Shown piece by piece: positions 4,122 through 51,900 of a DNA stretch of 64,000 nucleotides. The position numbers and the translations under genes were made by a program. The notes below the pieces were generated by a model. It did not search any database, was not told the origin of the DNA, and worked only from the letters and a program-made list of their open reading frames with translations. Every line of letters begins with the position of its first letter. Positions within the stretch are counted from its first letter, which is position 1. Source of the stretch: Dehalococcoidia bacterium (GTDB lineage Bacteria > Chloroflexota > Dehalococcoidia > Lucifugimonadales > UBA3495); contig OZ244136.1 in the NCBI GenBank assembly GCA_965215975.1, positions 2,965,281 to 3,029,280 on the forward strand, read 5' to 3'.

Positions 4122-4541
4122 TCACTCTCTTTCTTGCAGCACGTTTCCTCCCAGGTCGGTAATGCTGTCAATCTTGACCAGCACCGCCGCGCCCAATCGG
4201 TCCGGGTCCCGGTCCAGTTCGGCCTGCACCGTTCGATGCATCACGTTGTTTCTGATGGCCCCCGACTCGTAAACCGTGGCCCGTCCGTGGAAGCGCCAGG
4301 TTATCCGAAGCGGTGAGTTGCGGTAAAAGATGACGACGTGGGGATTCTCTGCCACATTCTCCAGGGCCGATCGCTTGGCCCGCTCCCAATAAGCCAGAGT
4401 TTCCCGGTCAAACACCATCACACTGCCCTTCATGCTGATTTGCGGCTTTCCCTCCTTGGTCGCGGTGCCCAAAAGGCAGGTGCAACGGTCGTCCATAGCG
4501 CTGTCTAACAGTTGCCGCATCTGATCATCCAGGTAGATCAT
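4122..4541 (-). CDS. Pyridoxamine 5'-phosphate oxidase-like FMN-binding split-barrel family protein
   Basis: 139-aa ORF. Sequence pattern typical of PNPOx-like proteins (LLGTATKEGKPQISMKGS...VVIFYRN...WRFHGRA). Confidence 0.7.
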   Translation of the reverse strand: MIYLDDQMRQLLDSAMDDRCTCLLGTATKEGKPQISMKGSVMVFDRETLAYWERAKRSALENVAENPHVVIFYRNSPLRITWRFHGRATVYESGAIRNNVMHRTVQAELDRDPDRLGAAVLVKIDSITDLGGNVLQERE

Positions 4542-4606: not shown

Positions 4607-4632
4607 TTGGCAGAGAATAAATATAGTATAAT
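4607..4632 (+). promoter_or_regulatory. Candidate sigma70-type promoter upstream of the STAND gene
   Basis: Perfect TATAAT at 4627-4632 and TTGGCA at 4607-4612. The spacer is only 14 nt, which is suboptimal, so this is weak. Confidence 0.25.
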
Positions 4633-4742
4633 GCGGGCGAGCGCCCCTATGTGGCGCCAACGAGAGATTTCATTCCTGAGAACCTTTCAAACTGCTGTTT
4701 GGGCACGGAATAATTGTCTGCCAGCAGCCCCAATCTTGGTAT

Positions 4743-7700
4743 TTGTGGAGTCAACCATTGGTCAAGCGTTTGGAAATTCATGACCTGCCTGAATCCGGCC
4801 AGCTTCAGCTCGTGCTTCAAGAGGATGATGGCGTCAAGTCAGCTCCGCCAGTCCAGTTTGGAAACCCACTGGATGATTCTGGACGATCAGAGATTTGCTG
4901 GTACTTTCAGGAGTATTTGGATAGCCCCTTTGGCGCATCCCGAGAACGCGCCCAGACGGTTGAAAACGGTTTCAGAAATTTGGGACGTCTGCTGTTCGAG
5001 TTCGTCTTTGGGGGCGGCGAAAACCGGGAGATGTTCGTAGCCGCTGCTACGGAAGGTTTATCCAACTATCAACTGGCTATAGTCTCCAATAGACCTGATT
5101 TTCTTGCCGTTCCCTGGGAATTGATGAACACTCCGGAATCAGGATTCCTGACTTCCACTTTATCATCCCTGGTGCGCCGGTCCAGCCCGTTGCCGTTGGT
5201 TCCCTTTGAGCCGAGCCTGACTGCGGAACAGATCAATGTCTTAATGGTTTCTCCCTATTCTGAAGGCAGGGACGGCGCCTATGCCGGCGGCTTGGCGACA
5301 ACCCTTGTTCCGGTTTTGGATTCGCTGGATGTGCAAGTGGAACTGGATTTTCTCCGACCTCCTACGCTGGACTGTTTGAAGCGTATGTTGGCAGAAAATA
5401 GTTCCAGGTATCACGCGGTCCATATTGATGGCATTTTCCTGGATGAAGAGGGAAGCATACTGCTGGAAACAGAGAATGCGTCGGGCGAATCTGTAAGCGC
5501 CGGCCAGATTGCTGAAATTCTTCTGGCAGCCGATGTTCCGATAGTTATGGTAAGCGCCGGGGACCGGGGACCCCGCCGAACCGAGGTAACCAAAGGCTGG
5601 AACGAACTTACGTCAAGATTTTCGGCGGCCGGCATACCGGTCACTGTCGCTTTGCCCCACCGGTTTCACGACCCGGCGGTAGGCGAAGGCTTCCTGAGGC
5701 GTTTCTATCAGACTCTCGTCAGAGGTGAAGAAGTGGCCGTGGCCCTGGGTGGATCTCGCTCCGGCCTGATGGAGCAGCCCCGCCGGACATCTCTGGCCGG
5801 CCCACAGGTTTCCTGGGATTGGATAACCCCGGTCGTCTATCAGGCGCGCCACTACTCCCCACCGGTTATTGAGGCAGAAGCGCCTAACCCGCTCGGAGTT
5901 CCCGTGATTCAACCGCAAGAAGAAACTCCCGCCGAAAGCCAGTTTCCCGCCGCTGGGCAATACGGATTGGTTGGGCGCCTTTCCGAAATGTCCCAACTGG
6001 AACGGCAGCTTGAGCACCATGCTGTGGTCCTCTTAAACGGCAATACCGGGGTTGGCAAGACCGAATTGGCCTTGGGTCTGGCTCGTTGGTACCAGAAAAC
6101 TGGACGGAAGGAGTTGCCCGGCGGCGTATTCTATACGCCCTTTGAAATTGCCCATTCCGCCAGCCTGGAAAGGGTTGTCCACGAGATTGGAACCTCGCTG
6201 CTTGATTTGAAATTTGCCGAAATGAGCGCGGACAGGCAGCGTGACTGGGTTGTTGATTACCTTAAGGAACAGCCCTCCCTCCTAATACTGGATGGCGTGG
6301 AAATTATTGCCGGTTTCCCCGAAGGCTCGCCAGGACTCCTGGAGGAACCTGAAAAAAGGGAATTGGCCCAATTTATTGCCGACATAACGGGCCCAGGCGC
6401 CAGCCGCGTTCTCCTCACCAGCAGGAATGTAACTGAAGACTGGTTAACAGTTCATTATTCCAGTTTAACTTTAGGCGGCTTGAACCAGTACGACCGAAGG
6501 GACCTGGCGACAGCCATCCTGGCCAATGCAGCAGTGGAACCCGATCGCGTGAACGAAGATGTCGTGAGATTGGTTGACGACGTGGAAGGCCATCCCTTGG
6601 CTTGCCAGGTAGCCCTTCCACTGTTGAAAGAGGCGCCGGCCTCGGTAATTCGCGGGGAGCTGGAACGTAGCCTCGCCGAATTTCCTGAAAGCTCAGTGGA
6701 GGACGGTCGCGACAATTATTTGACTGCGCTGATGGAATACTCGTGGTCCAAGATGTCTCACCGCAGCAGGACTCACTTGCCTTTCCTGGCTCTTTTCCAG
6801 CGCAGAGTAATGATGGACATCCTGACCCACATCACGCAGGAACAAGCCTACCGCTCAGCCATGGGTGAAGAACTGGGTTGGGGCGCTTGCCGAACCCTGC
6901 TGCGTTCCGGTCTGGCTGCCGGTTTTCTGGAACCTATCTCTCCCAGCGTTTACCAGGTTCATCCCGCAGTTCCACGATTTCTTGGTTCCAAGTTGGGCCG
7001 TCAGCTTCGTGGTGACACCATTGGACATTTGGAGTCAGAATTCGTGCGGGTTTACGCTGACACGGCCGATTACTTCATGGAATCCCTCTACGAGAACCAG
7101 GCCTCAGGAGCAACGGCGGTGCTTGCAGAAGAGGGCAACTTGAACCAGGCGTTGGGCCTGGCATTGGAAGCCCGCCAGTGGGACAATGCGCAGCTGATTG
7201 TTCAACCCTTGGCCCAGGTATACCGCATGCAGAGGCGAATCCCCGAGTTGCGGAGGCTGCGAGCGCAGCTTTTGGAAGCTGTGGGTGGTTCGGCTTCCGA
7301 AGCGGATGAGGCGGGTGCCATCGACCTTTGGATGTACCTGTTGGGTACCGACGTCAGCGAATCGGTCGAACAAGGCGAAGTTCAGCGGGCGCTGGAATTG
7401 AACCAGCAGTTATCGGACTACCTTACTGAGCTTCCTGAGGCAGAAGCGGACCCGAGGGTCGCCTCCGTTTACCATCAATTCGGGGCCATTGCCCTTCTGC
7501 TGCGCCGCCTGGACGAAGCCGCCGGTTGGTTCCAGCGGTCGCTGGCTATTATCGAAAATGAAGAAGACCGCTCCGCCGTGGCTGACGATTATTTTGCGTT
7601 GGGTCAAGTAAGGCAGCAACAGCGCCTGTATACCGAGGCTAAAGAGTGGTACAGCAAGGCACTGGATATTCACCAGCGGCTGCCCGATGAAGAAGAAATG

Positions 7701-8432
7701 GTCAAGGATTACCGGGCCCTGGGCCTGGTAACCCAGTTGAAGTTTGAATACAAGGAAGCGGAAAGCTGGTATCACCGAGCCAGGGACTTGGTTGAAGAGC
7801 ACCGGGACGAGGAGACGGCCGTACTGATTTTTCATGAGCTGGGTACCGTCTCCCACGCTCAATATAATTTCGACGAGGCCAAGTCCTGGTACCAGCAGGC
7901 GCTAAGCCTGAGCGATCGGCAGGGCAATACGGCTCAGTTGGCCACAGAACTGCACTTCCTGGGGCTGCTGGAACAAGACCGGGGCATTGTGTACGAAGAG
8001 GCTGAGGAGTGGTATCTGGCTGCATTGGAAAGGCGGGAGGACTTGGGCGACCGCCGCGGGGCAGGGGATGAATGCCGCCAACTGGGGGTGCTGTTCCACG
8101 AACAAAAACTCTATGACCAGGCCGAGAATTGGTACCATCAGGCACGGGAAATCTTCGAAAACTTGGGCGATGTCCAGCGACTAGCCCGTACCTATGGCCA
8201 GTTGGGTATGGTGGCTGAGGAACAGGACAACTTGAGCGGCGCTTTGGAGTGGGCCACCCGAACTTACAAGTTGGTGACAGAATACGAACTGCCTGTGTTA
8301 ATCCAGGTTAAAGCCCACTTGGCTAGGCTGAGGGATAAGTACGGAGAGGTCGAATTTGGGCGTTGGTGGCTGGACTTTACCGGTGACGAAGCCCCAACGG
8401 ACCTGGATGTTGATACCAGTGGAATTCTGTAA
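4743..8432 (+). CDS. STAND NTPase with N-terminal CHAT-like (caspase-fold) domain, central NB-ARC-type P-loop module and C-terminal TPR array
   Basis: CHAT-like landmarks: PWELM, YHAVHIDG, IVMVSAGD, FLRRFYQTL. Walker A GNTGVGKTELA, Walker B LLILDGVE, SRVLLTSRN, and a GLPL-like GHPLA. About 7 repeats of 40-42 aa share an A-x-x-W-[YF]-x-x-A core (AKEWYSKAL, AESWYHRAR, AKSWYQQAL, AEEWYLAAL, AENWYHQAR...). The TTG start at 4743 is uncertain. Confidence 0.85.
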   Translation: MWSQPLVKRLEIHDLPESGQLQLVLQEDDGVKSAPPVQFGNPLDDSGRSEICWYFQEYLDSPFGASRERAQTVENGFRNLGRLLFEFVFGGGENREMFVAAATEGLSNYQLAIVSNRPDFLAVPWELMNTPESGFLTSTLSSLVRRSSPLPLVPFEPSLTAEQINVLMVSPYSEGRDGAYAGGLATTLVPVLDSLDVQVELDFLRPPTLDCLKRMLAENSSRYHAVHIDGIFLDEEGSILLETENASGESVSAGQIAEILLAADVPIVMVSAGDRGPRRTEVTKGWNELTSRFSAAGIPVTVALPHRFHDPAVGEGFLRRFYQTLVRGEEVAVALGGSRSGLMEQPRRTSLAGPQVSWDWITPVVYQARHYSPPVIEAEAPNPLGVPVIQPQEETPAESQFPAAGQYGLVGRLSEMSQLERQLEHHAVVLLNGNTGVGKTELALGLARWYQKTGRKELPGGVFYTPFEIAHSASLERVVHEIGTSLLDLKFAEMSADRQRDWVVDYLKEQPSLLILDGVEIIAGFPEGSPGLLEEPEKRELAQFIADITGPGASRVLLTSRNVTEDWLTVHYSSLTLGGLNQYDRRDLATAILANAAVEPDRVNEDVVRLVDDVEGHPLACQVALPLLKEAPASVIRGELERSLAEFPESSVEDGRDNYLTALMEYSWSKMSHRSRTHLPFLALFQRRVMMDILTHITQEQAYRSAMGEELGWGACRTLLRSGLAAGFLEPISPSVYQVHPAVPRFLGSKLGRQLRGDTIGHLESEFVRVYADTADYFMESLYENQASGATAVLAEEGNLNQALGLALEARQWDNAQLIVQPLAQVYRMQRRIPELRRLRAQLLEAVGGSASEADEAGAIDLWMYLLGTDVSESVEQGEVQRALELNQQLSDYLTELPEAEADPRVASVYHQFGAIALLLRRLDEAAGWFQRSLAIIENEEDRSAVADDYFALGQVRQQQRLYTEAKEWYSKALDIHQRLPDEEEMVKDYRALGLVTQLKFEYKEAESWYHRARDLVEEHRDEETAVLIFHELGTVSHAQYNFDEAKSWYQQALSLSDRQGNTAQLATELHFLGLLEQDRGIVYEEAEEWYLAALERREDLGDRRGAGDECRQLGVLFHEQKLYDQAENWYHQAREIFENLGDVQRLARTYGQLGMVAEEQDNLSGALEWATRTYKLVTEYELPVLIQVKAHLARLRDKYGEVEFGRWWLDFTGDEAPTDLDVDTSGIL

Positions 8433-8570
8433 ACTTTTCCAAAGCTAATTTCAGCGGTAGTTCCCCACTTAGCGACCCATCCCTCAAGCCTTTTGGGAGA
8501 GGGCCGCCAGGTTGAAACACTTTCCGACGATTATCAAAATGGAGCTTTCGTGAGCTAAAGGAGGCAGGAA

Positions 8571-10583
8571 ATGTCAGTAGGCAGGCTGGAAATTACCTCC
8601 CGGAAACCTTTTGCCAATGGGGAATCGTTTGGCGACGTGGGACCTTATGAACAACTGGACGGCACCGTATATTTTACCGTTGACCCGGTTAATCCGGTTA
8701 ACGAAAGGGTTGCGGACCTCAGACTGGCGCCCCGAAGCAACACGGGGGAAATCCATTTCTATTCGGATTTTCGCATCCTGAAGCCGGTCGACCAGGAAAA
8801 AGGCAACGGCAGGCTTTTCTTCGACATACTCAATCGTGGTCGTGGCCCCTGTCTGCGGAACTTCAACAATGCTCCGGATCTGGCCCCCGACGAGCCCTTG
8901 CAGGCTGGCAACGGGTTCTTGATGCGCCAGGGTTATACCGTGGCTTGGTGCGGTTGGCAGCACGATGCCCCTGACGTGCCGGGAGTCCTTCGCCTCTACC
9001 CTCCGGAAGCACGGAATCCCGATGGCAGCAGGATCACTGGCAAGCTGGTCGTTACCTTTGTTCCCAACGAGCCAATAAAGCAACAGTTCTTGTCAGACCG
9101 CAATCACCGCCCTTATCCCGCAAACAACCTGGAGGACTGGGATTCGGTGATGACTGTCCAGGAGAGTGAGGATGGGCCAGAGCAGGTCATTCCCAGGGAG
9201 GAATGGAGATTTGCCCGTGAGGGCAATGGTCAGGTTGTTCCGGATGCGGGATATGTATACAAAGCTTCCGGATTCGAGCCAGGCAAAGTTTACCAGGTCA
9301 TTTATTCCACTACGGGAGCACCGATAGTGGGGACAGGCCTTCTGGCAACCAGGGAACTGGCTTCCTTCCTCCGGCATGGCGCAGAGGCCGATGGTAACCC
9401 TTGCGCCGCCAACCTGGAGTACGCTTACAGTTTTGGCTCGTCTCAGAGCGGAAGGTTTTTGAGGGACCTCCTTTACTACGGACTCAATTATGATGAACAA
9501 GGCCGCAGAGTATTCGACGGCCTTATCCCTCATGTAGCCGGAGCCAAGCATGGCGAGTTCAACCAGCGGTTCGCCCAACCTTCCAGCCAGGCCAGTCGCA
9601 GTCCCAACAATCTCTTTCCCTATAGCGATTTAGAGCAAACCGACCCGGTGACAGGTGAGACGGACGGCGTATTGGTGCGCTCCGCAGCCCAGGGCCCGCT
9701 GCCCATGATTATGTACACCTATACTTCCTCTGAGTATTGGGGCGGCGGCGGCGCATTGGTTCATATCGATTTGTCAGGGACGAAGGATATGGAGATTCCT
9801 GACGAAGTGCGCGTATATCACTTTGGCGGAGCCCAGCACCCCCTGGGCACGTCTTATCTGCGGGACAGTGATCCTGGCAACGGCAGCCGGGGTCAACAAC
9901 CCTTCAATTGCCTCGATTATCGCCCCTTGTTGCGGGCTGCCCTCTTAAACCTGGACCGCTGGGTCACCGATGGCGCCGAAGCCCCTGCCAGCCAATACCC
10001 TCGGTTGGACAATGGTACTGCGGCGGACCCTGAGAATGTTTCGGCGGCGTTAAAAAGGATTCCGGGAGTAAACACTCCGGAACCGATGCGCCGCTTTAAT
10101 CGGTTGGACTTTGGTCCCGAGCCTGGTGTCGCCACCAATGTGCCTGTGATTGTGGGTGAACCCTACCCTCTGTTAGTGCCCTCCGTTGACGAGGATTGCA
10201 ATGAGCAGGCGGGAATCCGGTTGCCGCTGGCTATGGTGCCCTTGGCTACCCACACTGGCTGGAACTTGCGCCACGCGGAAATTGGCGGTGAGGGGCAGAT
10301 TCTGTCCTCAGGAGGAGCAACGGGGGGGACCCTGGCCGGTTCTACAATTCCCTTCCCGGCAACCCGCGCTGAAAGGGAAAATTCAGGCGACCCCCGGCTT
10401 TCAATAGAGGAAAGGTACGCTTCCAGAGAAGACTATCTGGATAAAATCCGGGAATCGGCCGAAGAGTTGGCCCGGCAAGGCTACGTTCTGGGTGAAGACG
10501 TTGAACTGTTGGTCTCGCAAGCCGGAGACCACTATGACGAACTGACGGCCCGGGTTGGGCAGGCACAGGCGGCAGACAACTAG
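8571..10583 (+). CDS. Large alpha/beta-hydrolase-like protein of unknown function
   Basis: 670-aa ORF with a strong SD (AAAGGAGG) 8 nt upstream of the ATG. Nucleophile-elbow-like FGSSQSGRF. Resembles uncharacterised 'alpha/beta hydrolase domain-containing' proteins. No specific function can be assigned. Confidence 0.55.
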   Translation: MSVGRLEITSRKPFANGESFGDVGPYEQLDGTVYFTVDPVNPVNERVADLRLAPRSNTGEIHFYSDFRILKPVDQEKGNGRLFFDILNRGRGPCLRNFNNAPDLAPDEPLQAGNGFLMRQGYTVAWCGWQHDAPDVPGVLRLYPPEARNPDGSRITGKLVVTFVPNEPIKQQFLSDRNHRPYPANNLEDWDSVMTVQESEDGPEQVIPREEWRFAREGNGQVVPDAGYVYKASGFEPGKVYQVIYSTTGAPIVGTGLLATRELASFLRHGAEADGNPCAANLEYAYSFGSSQSGRFLRDLLYYGLNYDEQGRRVFDGLIPHVAGAKHGEFNQRFAQPSSQASRSPNNLFPYSDLEQTDPVTGETDGVLVRSAAQGPLPMIMYTYTSSEYWGGGGALVHIDLSGTKDMEIPDEVRVYHFGGAQHPLGTSYLRDSDPGNGSRGQQPFNCLDYRPLLRAALLNLDRWVTDGAEAPASQYPRLDNGTAADPENVSAALKRIPGVNTPEPMRRFNRLDFGPEPGVATNVPVIVGEPYPLLVPSVDEDCNEQAGIRLPLAMVPLATHTGWNLRHAEIGGEGQILSSGGATGGTLAGSTIPFPATRAERENSGDPRLSIEERYASREDYLDKIRESAEELARQGYVLGEDVELLVSQAGDHYDELTARVGQAQAADN

Positions 10584-10641
10584 GCCCCTGCCAATTCAGC
10601 TATGAAGCCCCAGGTGAGGCAGACCCGAAGCGGAGAATTCA

Positions 10642-12003
10642 ATGGATAAGACCACTAGGCTATTGAGCAGTTATTCAGCTCAGTTGACCTACGAGGACCT
10701 GGACTCGGCCACAATACACCAGGTCAAGCGCACCCTGATAGATACGTTGGGGTGCGCTATGGGCGGCTATATCTCTGAACCAGCCAAAATTGCTCGTGGC
10801 TTGGCCGGCGCCGTCACGGGAAACCCGGCGGCAAGGGTGCTGGGCACTAATGATTACAGCTCTCTGGATATGTCCGCATTTGCTAATGGATGTATGATTC
10901 GCTATCTGGACTGCAACGATTCATACTTCACTCCCGGTGGCGGCCACCCCAGCGACATGATTGCTGCAGTGTTGTCAGTAGGAGATGCGTATGACCGGGA
11001 CGGACATTCGTTAATCGCGGCTATTGCGCTGGCTTACGAGGTGTTCTGCCGACTGTCTGACCAGGTCGTTAGTGGCGACTTGGGTTGGGACCAGGGAATG
11101 TTCAGCATCGTGGGCGCGACCTGCGCGGCTGGAGCATTGATGGGCCTAAACGAGGACGAACTCGGCAATGCCATTTCTCTGGCCCTCGCTCCTAACCTGC
11201 CCCTGGGCGTCACGCGGACCGGAGAACTATCCATGTGGAAGGGTTGCGCCACAGCCAGCGCCACCCGGGCCGGCGTTTTCGCCGCCCAATTGGCCGCCGT
11301 AGGCATGTCTGGCCCAGGCGAACCCTTCGAGGGAAGGCGCGGGCTTTGGGAACAAGCAGGGGTTACTGAAAAGGTTACCCTTGACCGTTTCGGAAGCGAC
11401 GGCCAAAATTTTTTGATCAACGATTCTACGTTCAAATTTTACCCTTCTCAGATACACACGCAGGCCCCAATCGGCCTCGCGGTGGAGCTACGACCCCAGG
11501 TGGATTTGGCGGCGGTAGAGTCTATCAGTATCGCAATTTATAAGTCCGGGGTGAGCAGCCCGGCCAGTGAACCCGAAAAATGGGACCCGCAAACCAGGGA
11601 AACTGCCGATCACAGCATCCCTTTCCTGGTTGCCATGGCGCTGCAGGATGGAGCGGTTACGCCGGGGAGCTTTACACCCCGGCGCATCGCAGATCCGTCC
11701 TTGAGGGCGCTAATGGCCAAGATGACCATGAGCGAGGGTCCCGGATTCACGGAGAAATATCCGCAGCAATACAACTGCCGGATAGAGATCGAATCGTCAG
11801 ACGGGACCAGCAAGGTCGCTTCCACGTCATTTCCAAAAGGCCACAAGGAAAATGCCCTGAGTGACAGAGAAGTTGGCGAAAAGTTTTGTAACCTGGCCTC
11901 TTCTGTTCTTTCAGATCAGCAGTGCTCAGATGCGCTGGATCTCCTGTGGAACGCGGAGGACACTCCACTTCTTTCGGTGGTTCTCGACAGTTTGGTAGTA
12001 TAG
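10642..12003 (+). CDS. MmgE/PrpD family protein (2-methylcitrate dehydratase-like)
   Basis: 453 aa. N-terminal pattern typical of the family (TLIDTLGCAMGG ... RYLDCNDSY ... GHPSD). Confidence 0.85.
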   Translation: MDKTTRLLSSYSAQLTYEDLDSATIHQVKRTLIDTLGCAMGGYISEPAKIARGLAGAVTGNPAARVLGTNDYSSLDMSAFANGCMIRYLDCNDSYFTPGGGHPSDMIAAVLSVGDAYDRDGHSLIAAIALAYEVFCRLSDQVVSGDLGWDQGMFSIVGATCAAGALMGLNEDELGNAISLALAPNLPLGVTRTGELSMWKGCATASATRAGVFAAQLAAVGMSGPGEPFEGRRGLWEQAGVTEKVTLDRFGSDGQNFLINDSTFKFYPSQIHTQAPIGLAVELRPQVDLAAVESISIAIYKSGVSSPASEPEKWDPQTRETADHSIPFLVAMALQDGAVTPGSFTPRRIADPSLRALMAKMTMSEGPGFTEKYPQQYNCRIEIESSDGTSKVASTSFPKGHKENALSDREVGEKFCNLASSVLSDQQCSDALDLLWNAEDTPLLSVVLDSLVV

Positions 12004-12031
12004 TCGGCTACTTTGGAAAGGCCACGTGTCA

Positions 12032-12871
12032 ATGCCTGAATTCGCACAGTTTGATTTTCGGACCCTTTTCGCCCAGCAGATTTCCCTTCCCGACAACGAA
12101 ATGGACCTGCAAAAGGCCGCGCTTTGTCTGGCCGGTGAAGAATTTCCAGATCTGGATGTGGAAGAGTATTTGGCCCGTTTGGATAAGATAGCGGGGAGTG
12201 TCAGGTCTCAAGCTGGGACGACAGCCGATCCGGGGGACATTGCCCGCGAATTGAATCACTACCTGTTTGAAGCGGAGGGCTATTCCGGAAATTCCAGTGA
12301 TTACTACAATCGTGAAAACAGTTTTCTGAACCGTGTCATGGACACCAAGGTTGGCATTCCGATTACTCTTTCTGTCTTGTACTTGGGGGTTGCAAAACGC
12401 CTGGGTTTGAAATGCTATGGAGTAGGTATGCCCGGTCACTTTCTGGTGAATGTCCAGGAATTGGACCTCTATATGGATCCGTACCACTCTGGGCAGCTGC
12501 TTTCAGCAAGTGACTGCCGCCGCCTTGCCCAGTCCATGTTGGGTCAGGGTATAGAATGGAATGACAGTTTCCTGGCGCCAACTTCAAGCAAGATGGTGCT
12601 GGCCCGCATGCTCAACAACTTAAGGCACATCTATTCCCACGGGAGAAACCTGGACCAACTGGCTTCCGTGTTGGAACGAATGCTTTTGATTGACGAGTCC
12701 AATGGTTCCTTGTACAAAGAGTTGGCGTCCTGCCAGGTAAAGATGGGAAAGAGGGACTTGGCGATTGGGACTCTGCAATCCCTGATACGGCAGTCCAGTG
12801 ACGAGCAGGACATTGCCGCCGCCAACAGCCTAATAGATAGACTCCTCCAGGCACAGCGCCCAGAAGATTAG
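12032..12871 (+). CDS. SirB1/YchA-like protein (transglutaminase-like N-domain plus TPR-like C-domain)
   Basis: Motif FLNRVMDTKVGIPITLSVLYLGVAKRLGL...GMPGHFLV is typical of the UPF0162/SirB1 family. ATG at 12032; the in-frame GTG at 12026 is an alternative start. Confidence 0.7.
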   Translation: MPEFAQFDFRTLFAQQISLPDNEMDLQKAALCLAGEEFPDLDVEEYLARLDKIAGSVRSQAGTTADPGDIARELNHYLFEAEGYSGNSSDYYNRENSFLNRVMDTKVGIPITLSVLYLGVAKRLGLKCYGVGMPGHFLVNVQELDLYMDPYHSGQLLSASDCRRLAQSMLGQGIEWNDSFLAPTSSKMVLARMLNNLRHIYSHGRNLDQLASVLERMLLIDESNGSLYKELASCQVKMGKRDLAIGTLQSLIRQSSDEQDIAAANSLIDRLLQAQRPED

Positions 12872-12966
12872 GCCTCCGTTGTTTTCTCATTGGGCAATCC
12901 AAATGGTAACAGCTAACGTATACTTGGACGAAAGGCCTGTTGACTCCGGGCAGCGGGAGAGTAGGG

Positions 12967-13542
12967 GTGACTGAAGACCAGATCCTGGAGGACCAGGAAC
13001 TGTTGAATCGGATCGCTGCCGGTGAAAAGGACGCCTTGGAGACCATTTATGAGCGGTATTCATCGGCTGTTTTTTCGCTGGCCAGGTACATGTTGCGCTC
13101 GGAGGCCGTGGCGGAAGAGGCTACCCAGGACATTTTCCTGAAGATCTGGCTCAAGGCTGCCAGCTATAGCACTTCGCGGGGGCAGCCAAAGACCTGGATA
13201 ATGAGCGTAGCCCACCACCAAATTATTGACATTATACGGTCCAGGAAGCGGTCGGCTGCCCTGTCTGATCCTCACGAATACGAGACCCTGGACTTGCTCC
13301 CATCCGCTCAGATAGCAACCGACGAAGCAGTGGTACGGAACTTGGAAGCCGAAAGGGTTCGAGAGGCGTTGGACAAGCTTCCCCCTGCCCAGCAGGAAGT
13401 AATAGTCATGTCCTATTTCAATGGGTTGTCCCAATCTGAAATCGCGGCGAAATTGGGACAACCATTGGGTACCATCAAGACCAGAGCGCGTTTGGCTCTT
13501 CAGAAACTTAGGGAAGAACTTCGACAGAATGACGTTGAGTAA
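12967..13542 (+). CDS. ECF-type RNA polymerase sigma-70 family factor
   Basis: Region 2 (AEEATQDIFLKIW...WIMSVAHHQIID) and region 4 HTH (MSYFNGLSQSEIAAKLGQPLGTIKTRARLAL). GTG at 12967 is preceded by GGGAGAG. The ORF-track start at 12940 (TTG) is also possible. Confidence 0.85.
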   Translation: MTEDQILEDQELLNRIAAGEKDALETIYERYSSAVFSLARYMLRSEAVAEEATQDIFLKIWLKAASYSTSRGQPKTWIMSVAHHQIIDIIRSRKRSAALSDPHEYETLDLLPSAQIATDEAVVRNLEAERVREALDKLPPAQQEVIVMSYFNGLSQSEIAAKLGQPLGTIKTRARLALQKLREELRQNDVE

Positions 13543-14455
13543 CCAGCATTCTTTATATCCTTCGGAGCACCCGGAGGACTTATTTGACGCTTACGTCCTG
13601 GGCTCCCTTGAAGAGGAAGAGCGGGACTGGTTCGAGGCTCACCTGGAGTCTTGCGAGAGCTGTCTGCGGGGGCTAAAAGGCTGGGAGGAAACGTCCGCGC
13701 TCTTTGCCCAGACCGTGCCCCAATTCGCTCCTCCGGCCCAGTTGCGGGCCAGCATAATGGAGGCAGTGGAAGTCCTGCCCCGGGTGTTTTCGCCGTCTTC
13801 TACCCACACAATGTCTGGAGCTGCAAAGTCAGAGCCCGCACCACGCTTTACGCTTAGTAGCTTCGCAATGCCATTGGCGGCGACACTGGTGGTTGGTTTG
13901 CTTTCGGCTTCCCTGATTTTGAATGTGGTCACCACCAGTCGACTGAATTCTTTGGAAGAGGAACGTGCGGCTACTAACGCCAGGCTGGCCGTACTGGAAG
14001 ATGGGCAGTCGGCAGCAAGCGCCGGCATCAGGCAATTGGCTGAGGATGGGCAGTACACCAACGCGAGCTTGCAGCAGGTTATGGAAACCAGCTATCTGAT
14101 GGCCAGACCGTTTACGCAGCCACTCCTTTTGCGACCCACTGACGGCAGGAGTGACTCGGAAGGAGTTCTGCTGGTGACCGCGGATGGGCAAAAGGCAATT
14201 CTCATGCTTGCCAACATGGACCAGCCCCAGCCTCCACAGGAATACCAGGTTTGGCTGTCGAGGAACGGCCAGGAGTTGCCCGTGGGACAAATTTCGGTGG
14301 ACTCATCAGGCTGGGGAACCATGGCGCTCAATCCACCGGAAAGTCTCTACGGGTTTGACTGGATGAACCTGACAGTTGACGAACCCTTCACCGGGGATGG
14401 TAACGGCGGAGAAATGGTGTTGCAGACCAGGATAATTTCGCCAGGCGCCAGATAA
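13529..14455 (+). CDS. Anti-sigma factor: zf-HC2 N-terminus, one TM segment, RskA-like C-terminal domain
   Basis: ATG at 13529 overlaps the sigma gene stop by 14 nt. H-x3-C-x2-C motif (HLESCESC). A hydrophobic segment (FAMPLAATLVVGLLSASLILNVV). C-terminal YQVWLSRNG...PVGQISVD pattern as in anti-sigma-K (RskA) proteins. Confidence 0.8.
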   Translation: MTLSNQHSLYPSEHPEDLFDAYVLGSLEEEERDWFEAHLESCESCLRGLKGWEETSALFAQTVPQFAPPAQLRASIMEAVEVLPRVFSPSSTHTMSGAAKSEPAPRFTLSSFAMPLAATLVVGLLSASLILNVVTTSRLNSLEEERAATNARLAVLEDGQSAASAGIRQLAEDGQYTNASLQQVMETSYLMARPFTQPLLLRPTDGRSDSEGVLLVTADGQKAILMLANMDQPQPPQEYQVWLSRNGQELPVGQISVDSSGWGTMALNPPESLYGFDWMNLTVDEPFTGDGNGGEMVLQTRIISPGAR

Positions 14456-15425: not shown

Positions 15426-16856
15426 TTAACTATTGAAAGGCCACCACTCCGGGAACTCCCGCAGCCTTAGCCAGCGAAAGAGCTGGGGGTGTGCTTCCAC
15501 GGCCAGACGCATTGCTTCTATTACAGGTTCACGTACTGACTCGTGGGCCTGTCCTGATGACCTCAACTTGAACAGATGATAGCATTCCCGCAGGTTGATC
15601 TTGGCAAGAACTCGGCGATAGTGTCCGTGCGTTACGAGGTATTGGGCTGCCAACGGAGAATACTGTGCCACTTGCCGGTAGCCCCGTACCGAAAGGTCCA
15701 TTGCCGACTGGAACTCAGTTCCAAGTCCGGCTTTCATCAAGAGTTCAGGCACTTTGAAGCCCAAGTCAGGAGTCAAGGCCTGATGAAAATATGATTGCAT
15801 CCGGTGACGCTTGAACTCCCGATATGCCCCGTACTCCATCACGAACTCGAAGACGTAATCCACCAGTTCGAACTCCCTCAAGGGAGCATCATGGTCGCCA
15901 AGGTGGCCCATGAAGCCTTCGATCAAGCCCAATCGATCATCCTGGCTCATTTCCGTGGCCTGTAACCAAACACTCTCGTAATCCAACGACGATTGTCTGA
16001 AAAGAAGGGCTGCTGCCAACCTTTCTTCTGCAAGTGGGTCGAGTTGGACCAGCCGGACGGTGATTGACGGTGAGCCGGATGAAAGTTCATCAATCGGTAA
16101 GCCCAGCTGCCAGTCCCTTTGAAGCGACGCCTCCAGGAACTTGTTCCGGTTCGCATATTTTATGAGGGTGGGGGTAATCTGGCGTCCCTGCTCCCGCATT
16201 TGCTCCCCCAAGTCCCGCTCTTCCGACAAGCCTGATGACATCAGCTTGGATATGGCATGTTCCAGCACCCGGGCGTTTGCGGTTACGCCCACGTTGGTGA
16301 GAGTGGCCGCAGGCAAAACTGCCCGGCAACTGTCAGTGGCCATACGGCGCAAGCGCAGGTTGTAGGCTCCATCTCTCTCCTGCTCCCTTTGCGCATCGGC
16401 GCGGCGCAAATATTCCATGCAGGCGTCAAGCAGGCGATGGTAACTGTCAAATAGCCCCCTGGCCGCGGAAATGTATGCGGTGCGGGCTTGCTGGTTGCCG
16501 TCCAGCTCCGAAGGGACATGGTAGTAGTCCTGGGGCATTACCTGATAACGGGAGGACTTTTCGGTATAGGAAGCCAGTCGGTTGTCTTCGAGGGTGTCGC
16601 AGGCCATCCGGGAAATGTTCTCCACCGCCAAATGGACTACGGCGTGCTCAGCCACCGAAGCATGACCGTAACCCAGCACCCAGCGTTCGTGGAAGTCGGC
16701 TGCCTTCTCCTGGCTGACTTGGTCCGCTATCTCGTCAAAGGGCTCGGGCCTTCGGGAGGTCATGGCAAAAGCGACCGCTATTTCCTCCTCTGTCAGCTTA
16801 TGGGCATCCAGCGGGTAAACCCGAGGAGAGTATGCGGCTGCCTGCGATGAAGTCAT
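15426..16856 (-). CDS. thyX: FAD-dependent thymidylate synthase ThyX, tandem two-domain form (476 aa)
   Basis: Two ThyX-like halves. The first carries DNRLASYTEKSSRY and ...AVLPAATLTNVGVTANARVLEH. The second carries KRHRMQSYFHQ and ...INLRECYHLFKLRSSGQAHESVRE. Confidence 0.85.
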   Translation of the reverse strand: MTSSQAAAYSPRVYPLDAHKLTEEEIAVAFAMTSRRPEPFDEIADQVSQEKAADFHERWVLGYGHASVAEHAVVHLAVENISRMACDTLEDNRLASYTEKSSRYQVMPQDYYHVPSELDGNQQARTAYISAARGLFDSYHRLLDACMEYLRRADAQREQERDGAYNLRLRRMATDSCRAVLPAATLTNVGVTANARVLEHAISKLMSSGLSEERDLGEQMREQGRQITPTLIKYANRNKFLEASLQRDWQLGLPIDELSSGSPSITVRLVQLDPLAEERLAAALLFRQSSLDYESVWLQATEMSQDDRLGLIEGFMGHLGDHDAPLREFELVDYVFEFVMEYGAYREFKRHRMQSYFHQALTPDLGFKVPELLMKAGLGTEFQSAMDLSVRGYRQVAQYSPLAAQYLVTHGHYRRVLAKINLRECYHLFKLRSSGQAHESVREPVIEAMRLAVEAHPQLFRWLRLREFPEWWPFNS

Positions 16857-21003: not shown

Positions 21004-21271
21004 TTCCGTCTCCCGTTCCCCTGGTGGGGACCGCTCCCGTGGGAGGAGGTTCCGGCGGCTTAGAGGGTGGATTCGCTGTGGAAGAAGTTCTTGACTTTGG
21101 TTGTTCGCTAAGGTCGGCAGCGGCAGTCATTTCATTTACTGTGCGCCGCATATCGCCGATCAATTTTCCGGCGGTGCGAGCCATCTCAATGGTCTTGGCC
21201 GGGCCCATGACCAGAAAGGCTATGAGAAATATCAGGGCCAGTTCCAGGAATCCAACGCCGAACAGGTTCAT
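20972..21271 (-). CDS. TatA/TatB-family protein (TatB-like)
   Basis: MNLFGVGFLELALIFLIAFLVMGPAKTIEMARTAGKLIGDMRRTV resembles TatB, followed by a Pro-rich tail. The start overlaps the upstream gene's stop as ATGA. The 3' end overlaps tatC by 32 nt. Confidence 0.75.
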   Translation of the reverse strand: MNLFGVGFLELALIFLIAFLVMGPAKTIEMARTAGKLIGDMRRTVNEMTAAADLSEQPKSRTSSTANPPSKPPEPPPTGAVPTRGTGDGNEQQPRTDPD

Positions 21272-23112
21272 TTCTGTTCCGCCTCGGATCCTTTAAACGG
21301 GCAATGTCCGAAACACTGCCCGCCCACTGACTCCGGCATGTCGGAGGGCACAGGATAGCCCAGTTCTTCCAGCATCTCCATAAGCCGGCAAAGAGGTAGC
21401 CCCACCACGTTGGTATAACATCCACCCTGCAGGGTAGCTGGTCTAAAGACGGTGTCCTGGACAGCATAGGCGCCGGCCTTGTCCATTGGAGTGCCCGAGG
21501 CGATGGACTCTTCCATCTCCTCGTCGGTAAAGTCGCGCATGACAACTTCGGCGGTCATGTGGTCGGTCATAGACAGGCCAGTGGCAACGTCTACCACGGT
21601 TAGGCCGGTAGTTACCTGGTGTTCCGTCGCCCGAAGCTGTTGAAGCATCTTACGTGCGTCGTCTTCGTCCTCTGGCTTGCCAATGGAGCGGCCATTCAGC
21701 ACCACCGTGCTATCCGCCCCAATTACAAAACCCTCTTTGAGCTGACCTGCTACCAGCATGGCCTTGTCGCTGGAAAGACGACGCACCATCTCTTCGGCCG
21801 ACTCGCCTTCAAGTTGTTCCTCCGGGGCGTTGGAGGGGGTCACCTCAAAACGCAGGCCCAGTTCGGTCAGCAACTCCCGTCGTCTTGGAGAGCCGGAAGC
21901 CAGAATTAGAGGAGAAGTGGTTTCTCTAAGTGAGAGCACGGCAACGCACTCAACGTGATGGGTTTGGGGGAACATGTCCAGGGGTTGGACTTGTTCGATA
22001 GAATAGTTGTTGGCGCAGAGTAGTTTCAGGTCCCTGGCCAGAGTTTCGGGGTCGCAGGAAACGTAAACCAACATAGGTGAACGTAGTTTAGCCAGGTGGT
22101 CGAGTGCCGACGGTTGGCATCCGGCTCTGGGCGGGTCGAGGATCACCACATCGGGGCGCTCCGGCAGGTCTGCCAATACGTCCTCCGTCTTCCCCAAGAG
22201 GAACTGGATGTTTTCGGCTCCCACTGCATTTTCCTTGGCATCAGCCACGGCTGCGGATGATTCTTCGATGGCGTAAACCCGCTTTACGAAGGGCGTCAGA
22301 AGGATGGCAAACGTGCCTACGCCCGTGTAGGCATCGAGCAGAACTTCACTGCCGGAGAGATTGACCGCTTCCCGCACTATCCCAATCAACTGCGCGGCTT
22401 GGTCAATGTTGACCTGAAAAAAAGAAGGGGAAGCCACTCGAAATGTACGTTCCCCTACCGATTCGATGTAGTGCTTTTGTCCCGTGGGTATGGGGATTTC
22501 AGGGTTCTTCAGAGGAGGCTGCACCAGGTATTCGTCGGTCTCCCGCCCAGCCCGTATGGCGAGTTGAGTTGTCTCCCCGCAACGGTCCTGTAGGTGGCCG
22601 AGGATGCTATTGATTCCCTCGTGCATCAACATACAGTTGTCGATGTGGACGAATCTTCTGGTTTCCCGGTTGACGAATCCTAGGTCGCCTTCTCTGCCAA
22701 CGGTGAACCTTGCGTGGTTCCGGTAACCGTATTGAATGGGAGAGGGAAGGGTGGGATGTACCTTGACGTCATTCAGTCCTCCAACTCTCTCGAGGGCATC
22801 AAGTACCTTGTCGCGCTTGACACTGAGCTGGGCCGAGTAGTCCATGTGCTGCCATTGACATCCGGTGCACACACCATAGTACTGGCAGGGCGCATCAATT
22901 CTTGATGGAGAAGCCTCCAGGACTTGCTCTACTATTGCGGCCACATATTTTCGGCGAACCCTGATGACTTCGGCCACAACTCTCTCGCCAGGGATGCCGC
23001 CCAGGACAAATACATCCTGACCCTCGTGGTTGGCCATTGCCTCTCCCAGGCGCCCCCACGATTTCAACGATAGCTCCAACCGTTGGCCGACAGTCACTTT
23101 TTCTTGTACCAA
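21268..23112 (-). CDS. Fusion protein: TRAM/RumA(RlmD)-type RNA (uracil-5)-methyltransferase plus C-terminal Maf nucleoside-triphosphate pyrophosphatase
   Basis: The N-terminal ~415 aa have a TRAM-like start, a Cys cluster (CQYYGVCTGCQWQH), the SAM-binding LLDAYTGVGTF, and DPPRAG...VSCDP...HVECVAVL. This runs directly into LILASGSPRRRELLTELGL...AGAYAVQ (Maf), with no stop or start at the junction (about nt 21915-21935). Confidence 0.8.
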   Translation of the reverse strand: MVQEKVTVGQRLELSLKSWGRLGEAMANHEGQDVFVLGGIPGERVVAEVIRVRRKYVAAIVEQVLEASPSRIDAPCQYYGVCTGCQWQHMDYSAQLSVKRDKVLDALERVGGLNDVKVHPTLPSPIQYGYRNHARFTVGREGDLGFVNRETRRFVHIDNCMLMHEGINSILGHLQDRCGETTQLAIRAGRETDEYLVQPPLKNPEIPIPTGQKHYIESVGERTFRVASPSFFQVNIDQAAQLIGIVREAVNLSGSEVLLDAYTGVGTFAILLTPFVKRVYAIEESSAAVADAKENAVGAENIQFLLGKTEDVLADLPERPDVVILDPPRAGCQPSALDHLAKLRSPMLVYVSCDPETLARDLKLLCANNYSIEQVQPLDMFPQTHHVECVAVLSLRETTSPLILASGSPRRRELLTELGLRFEVTPSNAPEEQLEGESAEEMVRRLSSDKAMLVAGQLKEGFVIGADSTVVLNGRSIGKPEDEDDARKMLQQLRATEHQVTTGLTVVDVATGLSMTDHMTAEVVMRDFTDEEMEESIASGTPMDKAGAYAVQDTVFRPATLQGGCYTNVVGLPLCRLMEMLEELGYPVPSDMPESVGGQCFGHCPFKGSEAEQK

Positions 23113-23744: not shown

Positions 23745-23841
23745 GGGAGTGGAAGGGGCCCGGTGGCTCTTGCGGACTTCAAATCCGTTGTGCCTCGTGA
23801 AGAGCGGGGTAGGTGGGTTCGACTCCCTCGCACTCCCGCCA
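23745..23841 (+). tRNA. selC: tRNA-Sec (anticodon UCA) candidate, with encoded CCA
   Basis: 97 nt. The 8-position acceptor GGGAGUGG/GCACUCCC has 7 WC pairs and a G-G at the base. 6-bp D stem GGGGCC/GGCUCU (two G-U) with the 4-nt loop CGGU. Anticodon stem GCGGA/UCCGU with loop CUUCAAA. Long variable arm (23789-23812) with stem UGCCUC/GGGGUA. T loop UUCGACU. Discriminator G then CCA (23839-23841). Confidence 0.8.
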
Positions 23842-48966: not shown

Positions 48967-51900
48967 CTAGGCGGTCAATTGCCTGTAGAGCATAGGCAAC
49001 CGTTCTGGCAGAGCCCAGATATCGCCCAGCACCTCGTATCCCATATCGCCACACATCTCCTTGAGGTAGTCGTGACCTGCCTTGTCCACGGTCAGGCAGA
49101 AGGGTGTGATATCTTTCCGCTTAGCCTCCATCAGGGCCATGTGAGTGTCATGGACGGCGTATTCCTTCTCCACGCCTTCCCTGCTGTAGCCCCGGTCCTG
49201 GGGCCGTCCATCGCTGATTAGGAACATTATCTTGGTCGGCGAGTCCTGGTTTTCCAGCTTGGTTATGGCGTGGCGGATTGCGCTACCCATGCGGGTGGCA
49301 TGGAGGGGCGTTATCTTGTCGATGCGCCTCTTAATCCGCTCACTGAAGTTTTCCTCAATATCTTTGATGACATAGAACTCTACGTTCTCTCGCCCGTAGC
49401 CAGAAAAGCCGTAGATACCATAGTTGTCACCGATGGATTCTAAGGCCGAGATCAAGAGGGCAGTGCTCTCTTTTTCAAGGTCGATAATACGCTTGTAGTG
49501 TCGGCGGACCAAGCCTTCGCGACGCCGGCGCAGCCAGACCATGTATTCTACCGGATCGTCCGGGGCGTCCCGGTCGTCCACAGTATGACGACCTTCGTCG
49601 ATAGCTTCTGCGGTGGAAGCGCTCATGTCCAAAAGGAAAACCACAGAAACGTTTCGTTCAATCTTGTTGCGCCGCCAGTAGATTTTTTCGTCCGGCGGCA
49701 CCTTCATTCGAATGTCTGCTGCCGCCTCCAACGCTGCGTTGAGGTCAATGTCCTCGCCATCTATCATCCGGTAAATTTTCCGGAAGGTTTCCGGCATTAT
49801 CAGCTCGAACTGACGCTTGATGTGAGTCAGAAGAGTCGAGTAGTTCTTCAACGAATCGTTATAAAATGCTGAATCGCCTTCGTCCAGAGATTTTTCCTTG
49901 ACCACGCACCAGCGCGGCTTGTAGTCATTGGCTCGGAAGTCCCATTCGTCATAGACGTAAGTCTTGGGCTCTCGGGCTTCCAGCTCCCCTCCCTGGTCAT
50001 CGTCGTGCAGCAACGGCCCGTACCCTTGACCGGGCTGGGAATTGGGAGGAGGAACGCCGGCCTCCTTCATAATGTTCTGAGCAAAGGTGCTCATACTGTT
50101 GTTTATGTCACCCTGCTCTGCGTCCAACTCCAGTTCGGCGCTATCCTGCAGTAATTGCTCCAGCATCTCCTGGGAAAGAGGCTCCCCTTCGCCCTGCTGG
50201 TTTTGGTCCATTTGAAGCTTGGTGAGGAGTTGAACCATCTCAGGCTTGAAGTCGCCACGATAGTCCACTGGTTCCGGAGAATCATAAGGATCGCCTTCGC
50301 CGCTGTCTCCAGAGGCATTTTGAGAGGCTTGCAACTTGTCCAGGAGAGACTGGAACTCCTCCTCGGAAAAGTCGCCAGGTTCCTCCATATCTTCCGGTTC
50401 CCACTGGTCTTCGGGTTGAGTTTCGTTCTCCAGTCGCGAAATAATCTCGTAGGCCCGCAGAGTAGCTTCCGCCGTGTCTTCCACGTTGGCCGAAGCGTCC
50501 CTCAGCACTAGCAGAATCTGGGCCAGCATGGTCGCCTCTTCCCTGAAGTCCACGGGAATGGGTAGGTTGTTGAACTGGTCCAGGCTCATCCTGATCAGTA
50601 GTTCGACCAGCGCCTCCTGCAGAGGCATGTCCTCGACCTCCGGTCGGCGGGCCAGAGTGTCCGACTGCACGTCAACGGCGACCCGACGAATGCCCGGGTA
50701 CTCGACCTTGATGCGGAAATCCAGTCGGCAGTCCTCCAGGACTGTGAAAAGGTCAAAGGCAAGGTGACGGTTGTCGAAAAGGCTGAGAAAGCGTCCGATG
50801 TCAGTAAAGGCACGAACTTGGCCGTCGGCCTCGACGTCGCCCACCAGCACGTCATTGCTAATTTCCAGAGCTCCCCGCTGTCGCTCCAAAGCATAACGCC
50901 TTTCCTCCTCAAATCGGAGGGCTGGCTTGGTAAAGTCGTAGAAAAAACTGCCGAACTCCAGATGGCCCACTTGATGGGTAGCAACCACCTTGAACCACGA
51001 GAAGTTCTGGCTCTTGTCCTGGTAATGGTCCACCACCGGGGGCAAGAAGACCTTTGTGCCGTCCGTGGATGCAGTGTCCTCGTCCACCCAGCCAATATTG
51101 CGGCGTACCAGTTCCTGGGTGTTCATGACCTCTATGGGAGTACCTGACAGGGCACGGCAATAGAGTCTAACCACACCCTTAACTCGGTCCAGCTCCAAGC
51201 TGGATGACAGAGTCTCCAGCAACGACTCAGAAGTATTGGACTCTACCTTGAAGAACGCGATTCCGCTTTCAGGGTTTTCCTTCAAGAGTTGAACGCCTTG
51301 ATGGAACCAGGTGTCCAACTGGTTGATAGTAACTCGGCGCAATACGCCATCCAAGCTCTTGAGAAATGACGGAACCGCTTCTGGGGTTATGGCAAGCAGG
51401 CCCTCGCACAGGTCCAGAATATGGGCCTGAGAACCCTGTGGAACCTCGCTCAGCGCCAAGCTACCGTCAGAAAGGAAGCGAGCCGTGTCCCGAATTCCTA
51501 CCTTTGTGAGACGCTCACCCAGTTTTAGGAATCGGCTGGTCTGGCCCTCTTCAATCTGTTGCAAGGCCTTGGGCGCCACTTCGAAACAGCTCTTGACCTC
51601 ACGCCAATTTCCATCGGACAGGGCTCGGCACATGGCCAGGAAAGCTTCCCGCTCCCGCCCCATTACCGGCAGAACGTCCTTGCCCAAGGTCAGGCATTCT
51701 ACGGCTATATCGTAAGACTTGTAGGAAAGAGCCTCGATCAGAGACGCGAATACCTCAACGTCCCAGAAGGGCAAGCTACGTATCAAGTCAGGGCTTACCT
51801 CAAAAAAGCGACCCGACAGGGTGCTTGATTTCCAGGTTCCCTTGTACAGACTGCGGCCCAACCCAGCCCAGCGAGGTATGTACTGGGGTCGCAGGTTGGA

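Follow-up and report, generated by a model that had tools for sequence, protein, structure and literature searches.

The 64,000-nt stretch of contig OZ244136.1 analysed here (the window), from a Dehalococcoidia bacterium of the SAR202 lineage, encodes on its forward strand (4758-8432) a protein of 1224 residues in which a caspase-fold CHAT module, a STAND nucleoside triphosphatase (NTPase) and an array of tetratricopeptide repeats (TPR) follow one another. It is the SAR202 member of a family of 'all-in-one' CHAT-STAND-TPR proteins, and the reading preferred here, at a probability of roughly 0.6, is that it has become a domesticated pseudo-protease, a switch or scaffold with a lineage-specific core function. 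The new part is a clade-wide pseudo-protease version of the architecture, which is a fixed, syntenic gene of SAR202. Bacterial STAND and NLR-like proteins are routinely read as phage sensors, for which architecture alone is insufficient, and automated defence annotation runs the risk that CHAT, STAND and TPR modules together need not mean defence. If the reading is true, it would provide a concrete, sequence-defined switch from conflict to housekeeping within one STAND family, in a lineage that is among the ocean's most abundant uncultured ones and for which active relatives are available for comparison.

CHAT proteases' catalytic His-Cys dyad (HG following strand 3, Cys following strand 4) is absent from the protein. 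A phmmer search of 1.84 billion cluster representatives with residues 6-880 as query (residues are numbered throughout from an open reading frame beginning at 4743) recovered 3416 of them at E<=1e-3, of which 630 pass E<=1e-30. The majority are about 1200 residues long and co-linear with the query across the N-terminal module, CHAT and STAND at 27-36% identity; the CHAT-STAND-TPR architecture is a large, pre-existing bacterial family. Motifs were counted in 108 full-length distant representatives and in 119 SAR202-family sequences, 52-98% identical. The distant relatives keep the His of VHFDG-H-G in 98 of 103 cases and the Cys of LNA-C-[QRK]S in 99 of 105, whereas the window protein and its orthologues have YH(L/V)VH(L/I)DG-[L/I/V/M/F] and SA-G-DRG instead. 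The catalytic-His position, Ile231 in the window protein (codon 5433-5435, + strand), is His in none of the 119 family members, being replaced by Leu, Ile, Val, Met or Phe, and the catalytic-Cys position, Gly273 (codon 5559-5561, + strand), is Cys in none and Gly in 102. Between residues 100 and 365 no position holds Cys in more than 30% of the 119 sequences. The protease proposed in the preliminary description of this DNA is not supported by these counts, both catalytic residues being missing from 119 of 119 family members though kept by about 95% of distant relatives.

The nucleotide switch that follows the dead module is intact. Walker A Lys439 and Walker B Asp517 are present in 119 of 119 sequences, a Glu three residues beyond the latter in 106, sensor-1 Arg561 in 112, His617 and Pro618 of the GHPLA motif in 115 and 119, and the MHD-like His740 in 97. 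Since the dyad is lost in every family member while the NTPase motifs are kept, the loss is specific to protease chemistry. It predates the sampled clade, whose ancestor exchanged His for a hydrophobic residue and Cys for Gly.

The position of the gene on the chromosome is fixed as well. When one genome was scanned for each GTDB species, by a search that detects close relatives only, full-length orthologues of 54-94% identity were found in 40 Dehalococcoidia/SAR202 species representatives (metagenome-assembled genomes), sponge-associated as well as free-living marine. When the neighbours in the window were compared by tblastn with the orthologous loci, a single gene order was found in every locus with enough flanking sequence: a thiamine pyrophosphate (TPP) enzyme, an ADP-forming acyl-CoA synthetase, in most loci a PNPOx-like gene on the opposite strand, the STAND gene, an Abhydrolase_10 gene and an MmgE/PrpD gene. 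Most loci continue with genes for a transglutaminase-like protein, an ECF sigma factor and an anti-sigma factor, the sigma/anti-sigma pair not being found within the fetched flank of two loci (L012 and L013). Seven long contigs were picked through their acyl-CoA synthetase homologues, i.e. independently of the STAND gene, and six of them carry it in the same slot; the best 120 of these homologues extend down to 74% identity and all still belong to the clade. The STAND gene is vertically inherited and occupies a fixed slot in a SAR202 metabolic block. A patchy distribution or linkage to defence islands, suggested beforehand as a check of a defence role, was not found: the same metabolic block recurs across the 40 species representatives and the six of seven independent contigs. 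That orthologues might instead prove to be syntenic core genes had also been foreseen, and in its genomic half this is largely what was observed.

The distribution of constraint along the protein is the reverse of that of a diversifying sensor attached to a conserved effector. The mean majority fraction in the family is lowest in the CHAT module (0.56) and highest in the helical domain and winged-helix domain (HD/WHD; 0.79), with the TPR array at 0.77, and 81 of the 270 positions between residues 601 and 870 are at least 98% conserved. Compared with a 95%-identical orthologue (L001), omega is 0.045 for the TPR array, 0.047 for HD/WHD, 0.13 for the nucleotide-binding domain and 0.21 for CHAT; compared with orthologues of about 73% identity, nonsynonymous divergence (dN) is 0.06-0.10, 0.09-0.11, 0.22-0.24 and 0.39-0.48 for the same four modules. 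When distant relatives are compared, HD/WHD and TPR fare no better in conservation than the other modules (23-27%), and the strong constraint is therefore clade-specific, as expected if the TPR and winged-helix surfaces have become fixed on a conserved partner.

Some relatives that retain the dyad are found in other surroundings. Genomic context was sampled for five of them. One (P0141) has GmrSD on one side and DndE/DndD/DndC-like genes on the other, SNF2, HNH, ParB_N and MazE being close by, clearly a typical defence island; a second (P0128) adjoins PhdYeFM/YoeB toxin-antitoxin genes, DUF29 and DUF2283; a third, from Nocardia, has UvrD helicase, radical SAM enzyme and AAA+ genes nearby; the context of the other two was uninformative. 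This small sample is compatible with a wider family that is associated with conflict and from which the SAR202 branch is a departure.

Under the preferred reading, the role of a protease-armed conflict sensor would have been abandoned, and the protein would now work as a signalling switch gated by nucleotide, or as a scaffold. Its TPR array would recognise a ligand or protein that is conserved and probably cellular; this contact would open the closed ADP state, nucleotide exchange would drive oligomerisation, and the folded but dead CHAT module, together with the N-terminal module, would provide an output platform for peptide or protein binding or for oligomerisation, in the manner of a pseudo-caspase. 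The core function may connect to the downstream co-directional alpha/beta-hydrolase and PrpD genes. Such domestication is a reasonable reading because STAND clades with and without a role in defence are intermingled in the superfamily (PMC13581612) and because a dominant-negative or peptide-binding role has been proposed for the inactive caspase-like domains of bacterial conflict systems (PMC7159879). A more specific version is put forward tentatively, at somewhat below even odds: an ancestral CHAT-armed sensor would have been domesticated into a core, constitutively promoted SAR202 regulator with its TPR and winged-helix surfaces fixed on a conserved cellular partner, and might gate downstream genes, either those for the hydrolase and PrpD or the ECF sigma/anti-sigma pair. 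If true, this would give the non-immune NLRs and the pseudo-caspases known from eukaryotes a prokaryotic counterpart.

Several points weigh against domestication into a core function. The seventh contig anchored on the acyl-CoA synthetase (L050) has a synteny breakpoint at the STAND slot, and the gene was not found in the 7 kb downstream, having been moved or lost. The count of 40 species representatives is one of carriers only; the synteny of the whole block could reflect slow rearrangement in the lineage rather than a core function; and the contrast with active relatives is drawn from five loci only. Furthermore, Avs sensors bind conserved phage proteins (PMC13581612), and because conserved sensors thus exist in true defence proteins, purifying selection on the TPR array is compatible with defence.

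This last point bears directly on the possibility that the protein is an antiviral, Avs-like STAND sensor with a non-proteolytic output, whose TPR array would bind a conserved phage protein and whose oligomerised dead CHAT module would recruit or activate a separate effector or sequester the phage protein. The NLR-like architecture and intact NTPase motifs suit such a sensor, as do the presence of Avs3 among the structural matches and of members of the wider family inside defence islands, and the SAR202 protein resembles the Avs families in combining a STAND NTPase with a TPR-like sensor and in having the effector position at its N-terminus. However, PADLOC matched the protein to a generic TPR model (PDLC01169) only, its P-loop matches having E>1e-3 and no Avs or other defence STAND model being matched, and gave no match to any of the ten neighbouring proteins. 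In contrast to Avs proteins, the SAR202 protein has neither a defence island nor a live effector, is inherited vertically in synteny, and holds one position across 40 species representatives instead of a patchy distribution. It is the effector module that has degenerated, and no relatives were found on viral contigs, in a scan that detects close relatives only. An antiviral function without proteolysis is judged unlikely, and the Avs-like sensor with a protease effector that was originally put forward is at odds with the missing dyad, the lack of an Avs match in PADLOC, the fixed metabolic slot and a sensor that is among the most conserved parts of the protein.

A different kind of function might be suggested by the genes downstream. 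The STAND gene had been described as solitary and without operon partner, but it heads a conserved co-directional run of six genes on the + strand (4758-14455), in which the first four gaps measure 138, 58, 22 and 68 nt and the fifth junction is an overlap. Directly downstream of it, in the window as in most loci, is the Abhydrolase_10 gene (8571-10583, +; 670 residues; Pfam), a possible co-transcribed partner, and the conserved block continues at 10642-14455 (+) with MmgE/PrpD, a transglutaminase-like protein with TPR, the ECF sigma factor and the anti-sigma factor, of which the last two (12940-14455, +) overlap, the anti-sigma factor being of the RskA/zf-HC2 type. The gap between the STAND gene and the hydrolase gene (8433-8570) conserves AGGAGG and ATG only, with no conserved promoter box, and shrinks to about 34-55 nt in several species. 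With short co-directional gaps and a promoter box upstream of the STAND gene only, it is plausible that the hydrolase and PrpD genes are co-transcribed with it.

From this arrangement it could be supposed that the dead CHAT module binds the Abhydrolase_10 protein without cutting it, and that the STAND switch thereby regulates the hydrolase and possibly PrpD. Alpha/beta-hydrolase genes recur as neighbours and partners of caspase-superfamily domains (PMC7159879), an alpha/beta-hydrolase zymogen activated by a caspase-like protease has been described (PMC12642450), and in SAR202 the neighbouring hydrolase is present wherever the locus extends far enough. The likeness to the zymogen system is imperfect, though: compared by size only, the 670-residue Abhydrolase_10 protein is unlike the described zymogen of about 33 kDa, and with the protease residues absent no zymogen cleavage would be expected. 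The pairing is also interrupted by insertions in three loci (L043, L048 and L049), and an adjacent alpha/beta-hydrolase gene was found in none of the five sampled active relatives. As the entire block is syntenic, adjacency within it is weak evidence of a functional link, and a dedicated partnership with the hydrolase is considered improbable. Of the insertions, those of L043 (15019-16791) and L049 (13012-14784) are N6_N4_Mtase+HNH genes (a DNA methyltransferase with HNH, 590 residues) that sit precisely at the junction of the STAND gene with Abhydrolase_10, which a mobile or restriction-modification-like element has used, and that of L048 is a 128-residue open reading frame.

Still less probable is the notion that the protein acts as a dominant-negative or decoy partner, similar to cFLIP, of an active CHAT or caspase-like paralogue elsewhere in the genome. 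It would account for a CHAT module that is well folded and dead yet remains under purifying selection (omega about 0.2), and inactive caspase-like domains have a precedent in the literature as dominant-negative regulators (PMC7159879), but neither the 64-kb window nor the fetched flanks showed an active paralogue, and there is one locus per genome in a scan that detects close relatives only. Continued proteolysis through non-canonical residues is very improbable despite the invariant His224, Asp229 and Ser115 in the CHAT fold, for His224 (less strictly) and Asp229 are also conserved in the YHxVHFDGHG motif of active relatives and so are probably structural, no Cys is conserved in residues 100-365, and we know of no caspase-fold protease without a Cys nucleophile.

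The domain architecture on which the domestication reading is built is supported by Pfam for CHAT and TPR and by AlphaFold2 and Foldseek, and in this the Apaf-1/NLR-like order of caspase fold, STAND switch and TPR array given in the preliminary description is confirmed. The N-terminal module (residues 6-105; 4758-5057, +) is predicted to consist of three beta strands followed by three helices, with AlphaFold2 pLDDT above 90, and is also covered by matches from distant family members. The CHAT module (residues 106-360; 5058-5822, +) passes the Pfam threshold for CHAT (PF12770; 48.3 bits against a cutoff of 24, residues 110-354), in agreement with the span of about 5040-5850 first assigned to it. 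The P-loop nucleotide-binding domain (residues 406-600; 5958-6542, +) contains Walker A GNTGVGKT (residues 433-440; 6039-6062), Walker B LLILDGVE (residues 513-520; 6279-6302) and sensor-1 Arg561, and the helical domain, winged helix and second helical domain (residues 601-870; 6543-7352, +; pLDDT 91) contain GHPLA (residues 616-620) and an MHD-like VHP (His740). GNTGVGKT, LLILDGVE, GHPLA and SRVLLTSRN, the last also in the STAND module, had been quoted from the sequence and all lie where they had been placed. The TPR array (residues 871-1185; 7353-8297, +) matches TPR_12 at 87.9 bits against a cutoff of 30.1, and seven repeats at a spacing of about 40 residues, each with a W-[YFA] motif, can be followed through residues 926-1169, which bears out the earlier estimate of about seven. 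The conserved C-terminal tail (8298-8429, +) has a GEExF..WW cap motif, of which the form GEExF..W is common to distant, active relatives, and closes with a clade-conserved PTDLDVD-x-S-x-IL, the PTDLDVD ending being specific to the clade; this could be a docking or autoinhibitory peptide.

Assignment of the middle module was made by fold. Searches of the full protein against the PDB by sequence matched TPR proteins alone, and a profile of the CHAT region matched nothing meaningful in the PDB; because these searches were uninformative, AlphaFold2 models were built with a 60-sequence alignment and compared with the PDB by Foldseek. The model of residues 1-405 (pLDDT 92) matched the TPR-CHAT protein of Craspase (7y8t_B, E=6e-7), DdvA (8rw5), SAVED-CHAT (8tl0), separase and caspase-7. 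The model of residues 395-890 (pLDDT 91) was closest to ADP-bound Apaf-1 (1z6t; E=7e-9, TMq 0.49), with 3sfz, 2a5y, 8rfh and 8bv0 as further top matches, all, like 1z6t, at probability 1.00; CED-4 and plant NB-ARC proteins, including resting NRC2 (8rfh, TMq 0.50), are matched, and Avs3 (8dgc) and NLRPs rank lower. All STAND features are present, namely Walker A, Walker B, the sensor-1 TSR, GxP (GHPLA), the winged-helix His (VHP) and C-terminal repeats. In Pfam, the P-loop region fell below the thresholds for NB-ARC (PF00931; 13.1 bits against 23.5), nSTAND3 (25.7 against 27.2) and NACHT (23.8 against 26.7). The NB-ARC-type STAND assignment made earlier therefore stands for the predicted fold (Apaf-1, CED-4, NRC2) and not for the Pfam NB-ARC model: the middle module holds as a STAND NTPase that is NB-ARC-like at the level of predicted fold only.

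The start of the gene could be revised by comparison of orthologues. The 1229-codon open reading frame first reported on the + strand (4743-8432) is genuine, but a TTG or GTG codon at 4758 is kept in an alignment of 11 orthologous upstream regions, a GGAG ribosome-binding site (4747-4750, +; both G invariant at the 11 loci) precedes it by 7 nt, and the modal length of orthologues is 1224 residues; the coding sequence is accordingly 4758-8432 (+), with a TTG start and 1224 codons. The spacer upstream of the gene cannot be aligned between species except for the start codon, the ribosome-binding site and a promoter-like box, ATATAGTATAATGC (4621-4634, +), with the -10 hexamer TATAAT at 4627-4632, which is invariant across the 11 upstream regions. 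In the form AAATATAGTATAATGC, invariant at the 11 loci, the box is upstream of the start codon by about 125 nt, and no conserved -35 element was found upstream of the STAND gene. The box points to a conserved promoter that would rely mainly on its -10 element, a form that may be general in SAR202. A simple promoter and terminator scan performed at chance level and missed the box, because a -35 match is absent. Decay of the gene into a pseudogene was considered and rejected, the reading frame being intact in more than 119 cluster representatives with omega of 0.03-0.21.

Proteins of this general type have been described before. The 'all-in-one' CHAT-NOD-TPR type of bacterial NLR-like protein has already been catalogued (10.1101/2020.01.06.895854), CHAT proteases with fused TPR or NACHT modules have been linked to bacterial gasdermins, and a Runella CHAT protease has been examined with catalytic mutants (10.1101/2021.06.07.447441). 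The earlier statement that the combination is known from computational prediction only is broadly fair for CHAT-STAND-TPR, with the qualification that it had been catalogued and linked to gasdermins in these two reports. The 630 representatives recovered at E<=1e-30 belong to this CHAT-NOD-TPR family. Its members, such as the CHAT domain-containing protein WP_449970633.1 of Nocardia, share with the SAR202 protein the order of domains, a length of about 1200 residues, co-linear identity of 27-36% and the NTPase motifs, whereas in the SAR202 clade neither catalytic residue is present and the gene keeps a fixed place within a metabolic block. Apaf-1, CED-4 and plant NLRs likewise have a P-loop, GxP, an MHD-like His and a C-terminal repeat sensor, but the sensor of the SAR202 protein is TPR rather than WD40 or LRR, and its N-terminus is a dead caspase fold rather than CARD, CC or TIR.

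The CHAT fold is shared with Craspase (Csx29), SAVED-CHAT, DdvA and the gasdermin-associated CHAT proteases; no gasdermin, CRISPR or SAVED genes were detected near the STAND gene by Pfam searches of the neighbours and window. The anti-sigma factor DdvA keeps its His-Cys dyad (PMC11506125), whereas the SAR202 protein has neither residue; DdvA was considered as a precedent for a non-catalytic CHAT protein and rejected, as it retains H862 and C907. Outside immunity, MalT and AfsR are nucleotide-gated switches with a TPR sensor, and the SAR202 protein gives weak matches to the TPR models of both (TPR_MalT and AfsR TPR); pseudo-caspases such as cFLIP keep the caspase fold as a non-catalytic interaction module. 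The SAR202 protein differs from these in having no DNA-binding domain and a different output module, and the likeness is one of shared superfamilies only.

Upstream of the STAND gene, the divergent PNPOx-like gene of the preliminary description (4122-4541, -) is supported by Pfam and is found at this position in most orthologous loci. In one locus (L051, 9186-10433) it is replaced, directly upstream of the STAND gene, by a gene for a 415-residue protein with a faint LRR_8 match. In L050 the synteny breakpoint lies inside a remnant of PNPOx (residues 86-139 only; features at 9139-11100 and 15451-15906), and a DDE transposase is located about 6 kb away.

The remainder of the window is ordinary core chromosome, with genes for 2-oxoacid dehydrogenase E2/E3, ThyX, Maf, SelA, a xanthine-dehydrogenase-type enzyme and tRNA-Sec. 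A 1086-residue open reading frame (48967-52227, -) has a VWA domain at residues 915-1062 as its sole recognised domain, its N-terminal 900 residues having no match, and a 614-residue open reading frame (21268-23112, -) is an unusual fusion of a tRNA (uracil-5)-methyltransferase with a Maf-like domain. Rfam searches of the whole window matched tRNA-Sec alone (23745-23837, +; RF01852, 67.5 bits) and nothing near the STAND gene. As SelA is also encoded in the window (57575-58978, -), this SAR202 genome appears to use selenoproteins.

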